From: Escherichia coli
Lineage (GTDB): Bacteria; Pseudomonadota; Gammaproteobacteria; Enterobacterales; Enterobacteriaceae
Assembly: GCF_003334335.1 (NCBI RefSeq)
Contig: NZ_QOWQ01000078.1
Direction: 5' to 3' (one strand)
Length of the DNA stretch: 4,565 bases
A program made the translations under genes and the position numbers. Positions 1,794-4,178 of this stretch are shown piece by piece. The notes beneath the pieces were generated by a model that had not been told where the DNA came from, ran no database searches, and saw nothing but the letters and a program-made list of their open reading frames with translations. Positions within the stretch are counted from its first letter, which is position 1, and each line of letters begins with the position of its first letter.

Positions 1794-4178
1794 TTATTGC
1801 TTAGTAAACGGCGCGAAGATTTCGCTAAATGCGTACTTCGGTGCCTGTTCTTTAGTCAGGCCGTGGAATTCCGGAGACAGGTTAGTGCCGCCCGGCAGGT
1901 CGCGCGCGATTGACCAGATACCAACCATACCGAGATTACGCTTCTGCGCATCCTGCATGACCAGACGAGCATCAGAGAGATAGAACACCTCGCCCTGAAC
2001 GTCGTTCACGCCAACCATCGGCGTGGTACCCATCATAGCGTCAATTTCTGCATCGCTCTTATTGGGATGGAGGCCTTTCAATTGTGAATGCAGGTTGGCA
2101 ATCGCAGACGTTGCACACTTACCGTGAATGTTCTGGCCTTCGGTATTTGCAGACTGACAAATCGCGTTACCGTAGTCCATTGTCATCACGTTCACACCCG
2201 CCAGCTCAACACCTTTCGCTTTGGCATCGCTCAGGACATTCATCCCTTCCGGCGTCAGGCCAGTCGGCAGAATTGGCAAGGTGTACCAGATAGCAATATC
2301 TTTGCCTTCTGACTTCCATTTATCCTGCACTTTCTTCACAGCAAGGTTACGACGTTCAATAGATGCCTGATCCGCAACCCAGGTGCCTTCGATATCGAAG
2401 TCCAGGACTTTGAGGTTCAGGTTATCAACGATGTCATAATAATGCTGCATCAGATCGTCTACGTTCTTACAGGAAGCAGCCAGCGGAGCGTTGTTAGCAC
2501 CACCGATAGACAGCATCACATCGCCGCCAGCCTCACGCAGAGCTTTGATTTTGCTGTACTGAGCGTAATTCTGCATACCGTAAGCGGTACCCCATGTCGG
2601 CAGACAGGTGTTCGCATCTTTACTCACCACAAACGCCAGCGTGAAGTGGTTGACGTTATGATTCTTAGCCAGCGCAGCCAGATCCGGGATCGTATTCAGC
2701 GTAAAGTCGACATACGGTGCATAAACGTGTTTCGGCCACGCTTTCTTCGGCGTACCTACGCGCTCTTTGGTTCCGGTCCAGTCAACAAAAACACGCCACG
2801 GGTTGCTGTCAGAAGGAGAAACTTTCTGCACTTTACTCTGAGAAATGTAGTTCACACCGTTAAAGCGAATCAGCGTATCGCTGGCATAAAGCGTTTCTGG
2901 ATTAAACTGCGGCGCATTATTCAGCTCTTCGTTGCTATAGCTCTGAGCCTTACCTAACGGCTTCCACGGGCGGCTATTGCTACCGGTGGCGTTTTGGTTC
3001 GCCACCAGAGCAGGGTTGTCACTTTGCGTCCAGAACAGCGCTTCATAAGCCTGCCCATCAACAACAACGCGATCACCTTTCACGTACACAGTGGATGCGG
3101 ACCATGCTTTCGCCGGTTCGTATTTCTTCCACGGGTTATCGCCGCCCGGGACAAAGCCCCATGCGTCTTGATCGACAGAAGTTTTATAATGTGCATCGTT
3201 ATAATCTACGATGCTGTCCGCGCTGTACGCTTTGCTGGCCTGGAAACCATCCGCAACAATGACGCCGCCGTTATCAATTTCACAGGTAGTCGGGTTACCG
3301 TACTGACTCAATTCCGCAGCGGTAGCTGTACGCTCGAGACGCCATGGGTTATTGGAGTTTTCAGCGCTGGTACCCCGTGGGCAATCTTTAGACCCAACCC
3401 ACCAGGCGTTCTTGTAAACATTACCATTGAAAATAACATGGTAAATTTCGCTACCTTCCTGGCCGCTCCACGCTTGCAATGAGTAATCGTTAACGCTATC
3501 CGCTGGTGTTGATGGCTCGCTGTTATCCGGAGTTGGGGTCACCGGTGTTTCCGGAGTTGGATCAACCGGAGTCACAGCACCGCCATTATTATCCGGCTTA
3601 ACGGAACAGGAGCCAGGGTTACCATACTGGCTGATTTCTGTTGCCGTTGCCGCGCGAACATAACGCCATGGGTTACTGGCATCGTTTTCTTTCGCATCGC
3701 CTGGGCAATTTGCCGCGCCTACCCACCAGGCGTTCTTATAAATGCCGCCGTTATAGATAACGTACCATGTAGAAGAACCTTCCTGACCTTTCCAGGCTAC
3801 TACAGCATAGTTGTCGTTTGACTTATCAGCTGGGGCTGGCTGAACATCAGGAGCCGGTTTAACGTCCGGTGCCGGTTTCACATCCGGTGAAGGCTGTGGT
3901 GCTGAAGTACAGGACTGTGGATTACTGGTTTCTGAGATTTCCGTTGCCGTAGCGGCACGAACATAACGCCATGGGTTGCTGGCATCATTGCTTTTCGCAT
4001 CACCCGGACAGTTAGAAGAGGCTACCCACCAGGCATTTTCATAAATTTTGCCATCGAAAATAACCTGATATTTATTACCACCTTGTTGGTTATTCCATGC
4101 TTCCATTGCCAATGCTGGCAGAGCGGAACACACCAGCCCCATACCAATCATAGATTTAGTAAATATATTTAATTTCAT
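1794..4178 (-). CDS. chiA: Secreted endochitinase / lysozyme ChiA: Sec signal peptide, three N-terminal CBM5/12-like chitin-binding repeats with Pro/Thr-rich linkers, a classical chitin-binding type-3 domain, and a C-terminal GH18 (hevamine-like) catalytic domain
   Basis: 794-aa ORF. N-terminus MKLNIFTKSMIGMGLVCSALPALA↓ME is a typical signal peptide with an AxA site. Three ~65-aa modules share AW…Y.VI.NG.Y.NAWWV…CPG…NPWR…TATAAE(I/L)S…C. AWSASTVYVKGDRVVVDGQAYEALFWTQSDNP is a ChtBD3 motif. LDFDIEG (aa 592-598, DNA 2388-2402 for DFDIE) matches the GH18 catalytic D-x-D-x-E motif. The position between bfd and tufA matches E. coli chiA. Confidence 0.94.
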   Translation of the reverse strand: MKLNIFTKSMIGMGLVCSALPALAMEAWNNQQGGNKYQVIFDGKIYENAWWVASSNCPGDAKSNDASNPWRYVRAATATEISETSNPQSCTSAPQPSPDVKPAPDVKPAPDVQPAPADKSNDNYAVVAWKGQEGSSTWYVIYNGGIYKNAWWVGAANCPGDAKENDASNPWRYVRAATATEISQYGNPGSCSVKPDNNGGAVTPVDPTPETPVTPTPDNSEPSTPADSVNDYSLQAWSGQEGSEIYHVIFNGNVYKNAWWVGSKDCPRGTSAENSNNPWRLERTATAAELSQYGNPTTCEIDNGGVIVADGFQASKAYSADSIVDYNDAHYKTSVDQDAWGFVPGGDNPWKKYEPAKAWSASTVYVKGDRVVVDGQAYEALFWTQSDNPALVANQNATGSNSRPWKPLGKAQSYSNEELNNAPQFNPETLYASDTLIRFNGVNYISQSKVQKVSPSDSNPWRVFVDWTGTKERVGTPKKAWPKHVYAPYVDFTLNTIPDLAALAKNHNVNHFTLAFVVSKDANTCLPTWGTAYGMQNYAQYSKIKALREAGGDVMLSIGGANNAPLAASCKNVDDLMQHYYDIVDNLNLKVLDFDIEGTWVADQASIERRNLAVKKVQDKWKSEGKDIAIWYTLPILPTGLTPEGMNVLSDAKAKGVELAGVNVMTMDYGNAICQSANTEGQNIHGKCATSAIANLHSQLKGLHPNKSDAEIDAMMGTTPMVGVNDVQGEVFYLSDARLVMQDAQKRNLGMVGIWSIARDLPGGTNLSPEFHGLTKEQAPKYAFSEIFAPFTKQ
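3282..3488 (-). repeat. chiA: chiA intragenic repeat 3 (chitin-binding module 3, aa 231-299)
   Basis: Same module architecture (AWSGQEG…NAWWV…CP…NPWR…TATAAELS…C), more divergent than modules 1 and 2. Confidence 0.7.
3606..3809 (-). repeat. chiA: chiA intragenic repeat 2 (chitin-binding module 2, aa 124-191)
   Basis: Shares the identical peptide NCPGDAK.NDASNPWRYVRAATATEIS with module 1; roughly 75-80% DNA identity with module 1 by eye. Confidence 0.75.
3834..3887 (-). repeat. chiA: Imperfect 18-bp tandem repeat ×3 encoding the (PDVKPA)2-PDVQPA linker between ChiA modules 1 and 2
   Basis: + strand units TGCCGGTTTCACATCCGG (3870-3887), AGCCGGTTTAACGTCCGG (3852-3869) and GGCTGGCTGAACATCAGG (3834-3851); codon-by-codon translation gives the PDVKPA repeats. 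Confidence 0.8.
3909..4103 (-). repeat. chiA: chiA intragenic repeat 1 (chitin-binding module 1, aa 26-90)
   Basis: DNA and protein self-similarity to modules 2 and 3; e.g. CGAACATAACGCCATGGGTT is shared between modules 1 and 2. Confidence 0.75.
4107..4178 (-). other. chiA: ChiA Sec signal peptide coding segment (aa 1-24)
   Basis: Basic N-terminus (K2, K8), hydrophobic core IGMGLVCSALPALA, and an ALA cleavage motif. Confidence 0.7.

Follow-up and report, generated by a model that had tools for sequence, protein, structure and literature searches.

Introduction

Spontaneous deletions in the lacI gene of E. coli occur between short direct repeats by slipped misalignment, and the domains of secreted glycoside hydrolases are joined by linkers rich in Pro, Thr and Ser. 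The E. coli chiA gene resembles both systems. As in lacI, the endpoints of chiA deletions lie in direct repeats (16-29 nt) a few hundred bases apart with one copy of the repeat retained, and the same repeat pair has been used repeatedly. Unlike the lacI deletions, the chiA alleles are natural, lie in a coding repeat array and are known here from sequence alone, so that the products observed are all in register and in frame. The ChiA linkers are likewise of low complexity, built from short repeats and placed between binding modules; they are ordinary for secreted glycoside hydrolases, and their length polymorphism is documented here for chiA.

ChiA of E. coli K-12 (YheB; WP_000773156.1) has chitinase/lysozyme activity and is secreted by the Gsp system, as relayed from Francetic et al. 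(2000) in PMC5797941, with secretion being cited also through PMC3446290. The N-terminus of the normal protein consists of four homologous 65-aa modules in tandem, separated by three low-complexity linkers, with the modules aligning without gaps at 49-74% identity in protein and 56-70% in DNA. Their only clear sequence homologue is the N-terminal domain of Chi2 from Yersinia entomophaga (PDB 6ogd chain C, from the Yen-Tc toxin complex), in which residues 26-94 align with the ChiA module (E 3e-14) and which has a single copy of the module compared with the normal four in ChiA. For the 65-aa modules, the sole CBM5/12 match in Pfam was a non-significant one to module 4 (E 9.7), and Foldseek returned no match to the module model at E 0.001 or better; the top matches, all weaker than this, were CBM5/12-like chitin-binding domains, namely 2rts, 2d49 (TM 0.55-0.65) and 6z40.

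In the adherent-invasive E. coli (AIEC) strain LF82, chitin-binding domains 4 and 7 of ChiA carry the amino-acid substitutions that make up its 'pathogenic' polymorphism (PMC11486038), the 'chitin-binding domain 4' of this literature being module 4 here. The terms 'linker' and 'truncat' gave no hits in that paper (PMC11486038), and a literature search for published in-frame deletions or repeat variation in chiA gave nothing relevant. The variation described below differs from the LF82 substitutions in that it concerns the number of modules and the length of the linkers, and the allele studied here carries K-12-type residues.

The chiA gene and its product

Both repeats under study lie in E. 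coli chiA, a 794-aa ORF on the minus strand (ORF list and Pfam) of the window, by which is meant the whole stretch of 4,565 nucleotides that was analysed (Table 1). The order tuf-chiA-bfd-bfr-gspO is that of E. coli (from the ORFs of the window and, for matching loci, their RefSeq annotation), with chiA placed between tufA and bfd-bfr-gspO as expected of the orthologue, and the protein has both the GH18 and the CBM5/12 domains by which a chiA orthologue is recognized. The four-module architecture of 897-900 aa was not found, the window protein having 794 aa and three modules. The gene is a shortened allele of chiA and not a separate gene.

Compared with K-12, the locus is the same and the DNA outside the deletion is identical, with signal peptide, modules, CBM5/12 repeats and GH18 domain alike, while the window protein is 103 aa shorter. 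The allele is intact in reading frame, with a predicted signal peptide, the remaining modules, the CBM5/12 pair and GH18, and by orthology with K-12 ChiA the product is predicted to be a secreted GH18 chitinase/lysozyme. The CBM5/12 pair gave sequence matches to PDB 2d49 and 6z40, and aa 481-792 match 9buf_A (E 1.8e-46) and 2dsk_A (E 6e-38). The RefSeq label of the shortened ChiA is merely 'carbohydrate-binding protein', because it is shorter than K-12 ChiA and has fused modules; NCBIfam holds no family for the short or the full-length protein, and no exact match to the window protein was present in a collection of 15 billion proteins. In the source strain gspM is broken by IS100, and the start of the window falls within an IS element.

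Table 1. Features of chiA in the window (position 1 is the first letter of the window).
Feature	Coordinates	Strand	Basis or remark
chiA (yheB) CDS	1794..4178	-	794 aa; three-module deletion allele of 897-aa bifunctional chitinase/lysozyme
Signal-peptide region, aa 1-25, MKLNIFTKSMIGMGLVCSALPALAM	4104..4178	-	by eye from translation; predicted
Chimeric 65-aa binding module, N-terminal part module 1, C-terminal part module 2	3909..4103	-	
Deletion junction, lone surviving 16-bp repeat AAAATGCCTGGTGGGT (part of ..NAWWV)	4024..4039	-	K-12 alignment
20-nt direct repeat copy 1 AACCCATGGCGTTATGTTCG (NPWRYVR)	3958..3977	-	partner 3655-3674; repeat list
Linker 1, between chimeric module and module 3, aa 91-126	3801..3908	-	module map
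Three imperfect 18-bp units, PDVKPA / PDVKPA / PDVQPA	3834..3887	-	Tandem Repeats Finder and translation
Module 3, aa 127-191	3606..3800	-	module map; 166-nt repeat family D1
17-nt direct repeat copy 1 AAGAACGCCTGGTGGGT, module 3	3721..3737	-	partner 3397-3413; repeat list
20-nt direct repeat copy 2 AACCCATGGCGTTATGTTCG, module 3	3655..3674	-	partner 3958-3977; repeat list
Linker 2, Pro/Thr-rich, between modules 3 and 4, aa 192-234	3477..3605	-	
24-bp x2 repeat in linker 2 (PVDPTPET / PVTPTPDN), 11-nt exact core CCAACTCCGGA	3521..3569	-	
Module 4, aa 235-299, K-12-type residues here	3282..3476	-	module map; K-12-type vs B2-type alignment
17-nt direct repeat copy 2 AAGAACGCCTGGTGGGT, module 4	3397..3413	-	partner 3721-3737; repeat list
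Two CBM5/12 repeats, aa 312-340 and 358-391	3006..3245	-	Pfam PF02839, E 0.092 and 1.3e-7
GH18 catalytic domain core, aa 506-702	2073..2663	-	Pfam PF00704, E 8.6e-10

A module-fusing deletion between direct repeats

The main length change in the window chiA is a 309-bp deletion that fuses two modules, not a change in the number of linker units. The gene equals K-12 chiA (897 aa) without an in-frame segment of exactly 309 bp, which lay between two 16-bp direct repeats encoding NAWWV. Through the loss of this segment modules 1 and 2 have become one and the Ser-rich first linker is gone, such that three modules remain of the normal four. Relative to K-12 the gene has a common prefix of 155 nt and a common suffix of 2246 nt, together equal to 2385 + 16, and alignment to a virtually deleted K-12 chiA gave no mismatches with a junction overlap of 16 nt. 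The gap was located by such prefix/suffix comparison and virtual deletions; MAFFT misplaced it, generating 73 spurious mismatches to K-12. In full-length alleles the 16-bp repeat AAAATGCCTGGTGGGT occurs at gene positions 140 and 449, while in the window allele the endpoints fall within the repeat and a single copy is left, as in a deletion between direct repeats. Modules 1 and 2 are 64% identical in DNA, with a longest exact match of 16 bases. An earlier sequence-only reading of the window missed the deletion because the three-module architecture was taken as native. The junction lies just beyond the coordinates quoted in that reading.

The chimeric module probably folds. It matches residues 26-94 of 6ogd_C without gaps across the junction (E 3e-14), and its AlphaFold2 model has a mean pLDDT of 85.

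The distribution of variants was determined in a panel of 5,426 complete E. coli genomes, about 3,160 of them carrying chiA, using junction-specific searches with representatives of every class being checked by sequence. Such searches detect only junctions designed beforehand, so all variant counts given here are lower bounds. While the window deletion itself is known from an assembled contig, its 36-nt junction was found in exactly five of the 5,426 complete genomes, which represent two or more allelic backgrounds. In A13, the allele with the 309-bp deletion resembles that of CU37RT2: lineage SNPs flank the junction at -13 and +171, and only four differences remain when CU37RT2 is virtually deleted, indicating that the deletion in A13 originated independently of the K-12-like alleles. 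In EC0430, MS 85-1 and 20KM2222 the background of the deletion is a third one, similar to 504239, and in protein P0062 a fusion of the 309-bp type occurs on a background with a 2-unit linker. One repeat pair has therefore been used in independent lineages, A13 as against the K-12-like alleles, with P0062 providing a further background. The EC0430-type and 600055-type deletion alleles may have had a single origin followed by recombination, since there are no informative SNPs between -89 and +648.

Other fusions are found at other repeats. Strain B771 has lost 324 bp at the 17-nt repeat pair, leaving a gene of 2370 nt, and the complete genome of ETEC1746 carries a 303-bp fusion of modules 2 and 3 at a repeat of 20-29 nt (29 nt in B2-type alleles). 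Fusions of this 303-bp type, the most frequent class in the wide protein set, were identified in at least 50 distinct proteins of 796-799 aa, most of the 799-aa alleles coming from short-read draft contigs of about 41 kb, as well as in Shigella forms of 701 aa; the Shigella protein P0070, which has this fusion, is present on 142 contigs, one of 5.0 Mb. In BL21, chiA has a 633-bp deletion with two modules missing, which is unexplained by long direct repeats because the microhomology is only 3 nt. In 162 genomes module 2 has a synonymous AAA>AAG change, by which the direct repeat is cut from 16 nt to 14 nt.

Repeats and length of the linkers

The sequence-only reading numbered the linkers of a three-module protein and, the normal gene having four modules, its linkers 1 and 2 (Table 1) are linkers 2 and 3 of the normal gene. 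It described three 18-bp PDVKPA units at 3834-3887, and these are seen both in the minus-strand translation PDVKPAPDVKPAPDVQPA, which consists of exactly three hexapeptide units, the third being PDVQPA, and by Tandem Repeats Finder as a period-18 array (3843-3889, 2.6 copies, 82% matches, score 66). Its description of linker 2 as Pro/Thr-rich and of low complexity likewise agrees with the composition of the 39 aa encoded by 3489-3605, which are 38% Pro+Thr compared with 12% in the whole protein. A second array found by Tandem Repeats Finder, of period 24 (3521-3569, 2.0 copies, score 68; repeat family D3), is absent from the earlier reading. Both arrays exceed chance, since the chiA ORF, when shuffled 200 times with its dinucleotides preserved, gave a score of 50 or more only once, the highest value being 60.

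Linker length was compared across the genome panel, as had been proposed in the sequence-only reading, and was found to vary and not to be invariant. At linker 1, four units are present in 16 and two units in 29 of the approximately 3,160 chiA-carrying complete genomes, with three units in about 98.5% of the genomes bearing this linker (45 of about 3,122 deviating). At linker 2, eight genomes deviate, with +24 bp in five, -24 bp in two and +9 bp in one; the +24 variant is present on two allelic backgrounds, and a fixed 9-bp (TPE) difference splits two major lineages of about 1,990 and about 1,160 genomes. The third linker, the Ser-rich first linker of the normal gene, varies too, with +15 bp in MS1494. 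Every linker variant is an exact gain or loss of an adjacent direct-repeat copy, in agreement with what slippage would give, and all length variants of chiA are multiples of 3 and in frame.

More than 98% of chiA-carrying genomes have a modal linker length, indicating that the tract is not hypermutable. The three 4-unit genomes that were fetched have one identical protein (WP_000773149.1), and the three 2-unit genomes fetched share one allelic background, being 1-4 SNPs apart in 1.5 kb. As these variant classes share one protein or one background, they point to few events at linker 1 followed by inheritance, and unit changes in the linkers are rare and mostly inherited. The claim that the linkers vary in length, in frame, by slippage is therefore sustained to the extent that in-frame variants of whole units exist, while the term 'slippage-prone' was overstated for three imperfect units in which variation is rare and mostly inherited. 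The accompanying suggestion that the repeats are likely sites of assembly error found no backing, since the linker variants occur in closed genomes and show no sign of such error.

Origin of the length variants

Since its linkers and modules hold short in-frame direct repeats, chiA accumulates in-frame length variants, and this is ordinary repeat-mediated gene variation. Most probably the variants arise from misalignment between these repeats, with the window allele being one such product. The anatomy of the junctions suggests that the mechanism is RecA-independent slipped-strand misalignment during replication. On a small scale, and rarely, linker 1 would gain or lose one 18-bp unit in this way, or linker 2 one unit of 24 or 9 bp. 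On a large scale, it would remove all the DNA between two repeats that stand about 300 bp from each other in adjacent modules and leave an in-register chimeric module, such that a K-12-type allele losing 309 bp between two copies of AAAATGCCTGGTGGGT would give the module 1/2 chimera of the window.

An alternative to slippage is that the modules were fused by unequal homologous recombination, dependent on RecA, between sister chromosomes. In its favour, the repeats of 16-29 nt all point the same way at a distance of about 300 bp, and the commonest class uses the longest of them, whose 29 nt in B2-type alleles would suffice for homologous recombination. Unequal exchange should however give both products, and the 5,426 genomes contained none of the reciprocal duplication junctions for which they were searched, nor was any protein longer than 894 aa present among the 120 homologues listed, although missing duplications could also reflect selection against five-module proteins. 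Repeats of 16-17 nt are in addition shorter than the minimal efficient processing segment that RecA-dependent exchange in E. coli usually requires, and this route is considered unlikely. It is decidedly improbable that the linker repeats form a hypermutable contingency locus, in which frequent slippage tunes module spacing and the variants are selected. Unit-number variants of both linkers, the two backgrounds of the +24 variant and the change in the third linker of MS1494 would fit such a locus, but there is no long near-perfect tract. The 18-bp array has just three units, imperfect at 82% matches, and the 24-bp array just two; unit differences are infrequent among strains (45 of about 3,122 at linker 1, eight at linker 2) and in the fetched genomes go back to few, inherited events. 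In-frame changes also allow no on/off switching, and a published account of ChiA polymorphism treats substitutions only (PMC11486038). Selection rather than drift could in principle act on both module number and linker length, adjusting the strength or reach of binding to mucin, CHI3L1 or chitin by host, which is regarded as improbable; the length changes in chiA appear to be nearly neutral. A pattern that bears on this reading is that one module has been lost repeatedly and independently, by the 309-bp and the 303-bp fusion, on various backgrounds, Shigella among them. If true, such selection would constitute a second axis of functional polymorphism in ChiA beside the AIEC substitutions.

The three-module gene of the window, and perhaps many of the draft 799-aa alleles, could have been generated by collapse of the repeated modules during assembly, in keeping with the start of the window inside an IS element, typical of the end of a short-read contig, with the draft origin of most 799-aa alleles and with the naming of the repeats as likely error sites in the sequence-only reading. 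This is very unlikely given that modules 1 and 2, at 64% DNA identity, share at most 16 exact bases, below common assembler k-mers, and that the identical junction is present in the five complete-level RefSeq assemblies, from different hosts, countries and SNP backgrounds, with the 303-bp fusion in the complete genome of ETEC1746 and, for P0070, on the 5.0-Mb contig among others. Relatives have fewer modules, three in Superficieibacter and one in Citrobacter and Enterobacter, indicating that the array grew by duplication at some time, and this would also be consistent with the three-module form being ancestral and the four-module form having arisen by duplication. Yet the chimera matches module 1 base for base up to the junction and module 2 beyond it, although the two modules differ at 36% of bases, a pattern that duplication followed by divergence cannot give. 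Of the natural genomes with chiA, moreover, over 99% have four modules, across every lineage sampled, and so does protein P0068, 76% identical to ChiA, while the deletion lies on several unrelated allelic backgrounds, leaving almost no credence for three-module ancestry.

Significance

Misalignment between short direct repeats, as the preferred explanation, makes chiA a clean natural case of in-register domain fusion by short-direct-repeat deletion, in which several junctions recur and none of the duplications searched for was seen, and models of deletion rates could be tried out on the gene. In practice the value is modest, and there is nothing here to surprise the specialist. The chiA genes of E. 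coli from Crohn's disease have been typed by substitutions only, and module and linker variants shift the residue numbering and alter the binding region. BL21, the usual expression host and one also used for recombinant ChiA, has a chiA of its own without two of the modules.

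The module 1/2 fusion allele

The 4,565-base window, part of the E. coli chromosome from gspM' to the 3' end of tufA, holds a chiA allele in which modules 1 and 2 of the N-terminal array are fused. The normal protein carries four gapless 65-aa modules (K-12 aa 26-90, 129-193, 230-294 and 338-402) joined by three linkers, with inter-module identities of 49-74% in protein and 56-70% in DNA. chiA was detectable by megablast with the window ORF in only 3,163 of 5,426 complete E. coli genomes and is 2,694 or 2,703 nt in almost all of these, compared with 2,385 nt in the window. The first 155 nt and the last 2,246 nt of the window gene agree with those of K-12 chiA, and as their sum of 2,401 nt exceeds the ORF by 16 nt, exactly 309 bp have been lost between two copies of AAAATGCCTGGTGGGT; K-12 chiA minus those 309 bp is identical to the window sequence. 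As a result the initial portion of module 1 continues, from the conserved NAWWV motif, into the remainder of module 2, and the Ser-rich first linker is lost. The sequence-only reading overlooked this deletion, the four-module form being the normal architecture, and what it called linkers 1 and 2, names kept below, correspond to linkers 2 and 3 in the four-module gene.

The chimeric module gives a gapless alignment with residues 26-94 of Yersinia entomophaga Chi2 (PDB 6ogd_C; E 3e-14), and its AlphaFold2 model has a mean pLDDT of 85 (25-sequence module alignment). In a structure search the folds nearest to this model were chitin-binding domains, with no significant match. Module number in related genera ranges from one to four. 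ChiA relatives that differ in it include proteins P0068, P0085, P0095, P0092 and P0102; one at 76% identity to ChiA has four modules, that of Superficieibacter three, and those of Citrobacter and Enterobacter one with extra C-terminal domains, so the array expanded in the Escherichia lineage.

Features of the chiA stretch
Feature	Position	Strand	Remark
IS100 (IS21 family) end	1-77		no match to gspM
gspM remnant	78-177
gspM'-gspO	177-854	+	
bfr	883-1359	-
bfd	1431-1625	-
Terminator-like hairpin, T run	1728-1752	-	just downstream of chiA
Terminator-like hairpin, T run	1764-1787	-	just downstream of chiA
chiA	1794-4178	-	contains the linker repeats
24-bp array	3521-3569		2 copies, score 68
18-bp array	3843-3889		2.6 copies, score 66
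Single copy of AAAATGCCTGGTGGGT	4024-4039
Upstream of chiA	4201-4400		26% G+C; several promoter-like matches, both strands
Terminator-like hairpin, T run	4419-4446	-	just downstream of tufA
tufA 3' end	from about 4470	-

Recurrence of the 309-bp deletion

A 36-nt junction probe, unable to seed on normal alleles (exact overlap at most 26 bases), matched exactly five of the 5,426 genomes, 600055, EC0430, MS 85-1, 20KM2222 and A13. The three-module allele could in principle be an assembler collapse, but this is unlikely since the longest exact run common to modules 1 and 2 is 16 nt. The 600055 allele is K-12-like; the EC0430 group has 12 differences from the window and only 5 from the full-length 504239 allele. 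A13 shows 4 differences from the CU37RT2 allele after virtual deletion, with CU37RT2-lineage SNPs at -13 and +171 flanking the junction (140-155) on both sides, so at least two origins of the deletion are independent. In the EC0430 group the stretch from -89 to +648 is free of informative sites, and the deletion may have come by recombination. P0062, a 791-aa protein of the wider collection, also shows this fusion, in a background with a 2-unit linker. In 162 complete genomes module 2 carries a synonymous AAA>AAG change that cuts the 16-nt repeat behind the deletion to 14 nt, which would be expected to make the event less likely in these lineages.

Linker repeats and their length

The sequence-only reading had described slippage-prone coding repeats in two linkers, and their position and content proved correct. 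Tandem Repeats Finder returned an array in each; the minus-strand translation of 3834-3887 is PDVKPAPDVKPAPDVQPA, and 3489-3605 encodes 39 residues with 38% Pro+Thr, compared with 12% in the whole protein. When the ORF was shuffled 200 times with its dinucleotides preserved, only one shuffle gave a score of ≥50, and with a shuffle maximum of 60 both arrays lie above chance.

A comparison of eight diverse alleles showed a constant linker 1 and, in linker 2, a 9-bp difference (one TPE) between two lineages, the shorter form occurring in about 1,990 and the longer in about 1,160 of the complete genomes. Rarer variants were sought with a composite of junction-specific probes, which matched 53 genomes; as only designed junctions are detectable, the counts are lower bounds. 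Linker 1 has four units, unit 1 being exactly duplicated, in at least 16 genomes and two, with a hybrid of units 1 and 2, in at least 29; linker 2 is 24 bp longer in at least five, 24 bp shorter in at least two and has an additional 9 bp in at least one. Every class was verified by the sequences of ten representative genomes in all (chiA lengths 2,712, 2,685, 2,700, 2,718, 2,670 and 2,712 nt). The protein is identical among three fetched 4-unit genomes and one background is common to three fetched 2-unit genomes, so that each linker 1 class looks like a single inherited event; the +24 variant of linker 2 occurs in two different backgrounds. The Ser-rich first linker, absent from the window allele, is extended by 15 bp (5 aa) in MS1494 (locus L027, 2191-4890) and likewise in protein P0051, with TPASNAPASNTPAN replacing TPASNTPAN.

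Other module-level variants

Full-length alleles contain in-register direct repeats of 20 nt (29 nt in B2-type alleles) 303 bp apart in modules 2/3 and of 17 nt 324 bp apart in modules 3/4. The corresponding fusions are found in ETEC1746 (303 bp; gene 2,391 nt) and B771 (324 bp; 2,370 nt). Among the short forms in a 5.8-billion-protein collection the 303-bp fusion is the most frequent, with at least 50 distinct 796-799-aa sequences; these are of the same locus and their junction matches the advance prediction. Shigella 701-aa truncated forms also carry it, and NAWWV fusions between modules 2 and 3 occur in proteins P0002 and P0052-P0055. In 34 laboratory genomes of the BL21 lineage a 633-bp deletion from normal linker 1 to linker 3, with microhomology of just 3 nt (TAA), removes two modules; ChiA of BL21 Star (locus L016, 925-2985) and the 33 others is 686 aa, without modules 2 and 3. 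Linker 1, which is lost with this deletion, is present in the B-named strain B-DidR, and the deletion thus looks confined to the BL21 lineage.

Additional rare length variants in the wide protein collection (P0065, P0080, P0061 and P0034) comprise two with a module joined directly to the post-module 4 segment (..DASNPTTCEIDNGG..), one 3-aa duplication (NPWRPWRYV) and one out-of-register module 2/3 fusion keeping two extra residues (AATATATEIS). Inactivated copies occur among loci L007, L015, L017 and others, with IS1 insertions in DLI.6n, AR_0137 and NCTC11023, a 47-bp frameshifting deletion in N61 and a C-terminal truncation adjoining ISEc62 in F5505-C1; in Shigella dysenteriae and S. boydii forms (P0070) the 303-bp fusion is accompanied by a C-terminal frameshift.

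Origin of the variants

In every variant except that of BL21 both ends lie within a direct repeat of which one copy is kept, the hallmark of misalignment between short direct repeats, and the length variants are all in frame and in register. Such misalignment would yield the chiA variants either by replication slippage or by RecA-dependent unequal exchange, for which the repeats are short. Unequal exchange would also produce reciprocal duplications, but none were found with the tested junction probes: neither that of the 309-bp segment nor the other duplication junctions tested gave a match in the 5,426 complete genomes, and among the 120 matches listed no homologue exceeded 894 aa. We therefore infer replication slippage as the probable source. 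Linker length thus varies in frame with the anatomy of slippage, which supports the sequence-only reading in part, but the variants are rare and mostly old, and chiA is better described as a repeat-rich modular gene yielding rare in-frame length variants. The mechanism is ordinary, the gene known and the general interest low; the variant catalogue appears undescribed in the papers searched.

Function and genomic context

Pfam places a GH18 catalytic domain at aa 506-702 of ChiA and CBM5/12 repeats at aa 312-391, and the protein matches solved GH18 chitinases (E 1.8e-46, PDB sequence comparison). ChiA of adherent-invasive E. coli (AIEC) binds mucin and CHI3L1, and substitutions in module 4, there called 'chitin-binding domain 4', are of importance (PMC11486038); that paper makes no mention of module number or linker length. 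Module 4 of the window allele has K-12-type residues. ChiA is a substrate of the Gsp type II export system, and H-NS silences chiA and gspC-O in K-12 (PMC5797941), with which the 26% G+C and the promoter-like matches upstream of chiA are consistent. The IS100 end indicates that an insertion has disrupted gspM, a type II secretion gene, in the source strain, whose export system for ChiA is probably inactive. The exact IS100/gspM junction is absent from the complete genomes; ETEC1730 also has IS100 in gspM, 37 bp away from the window's insertion.
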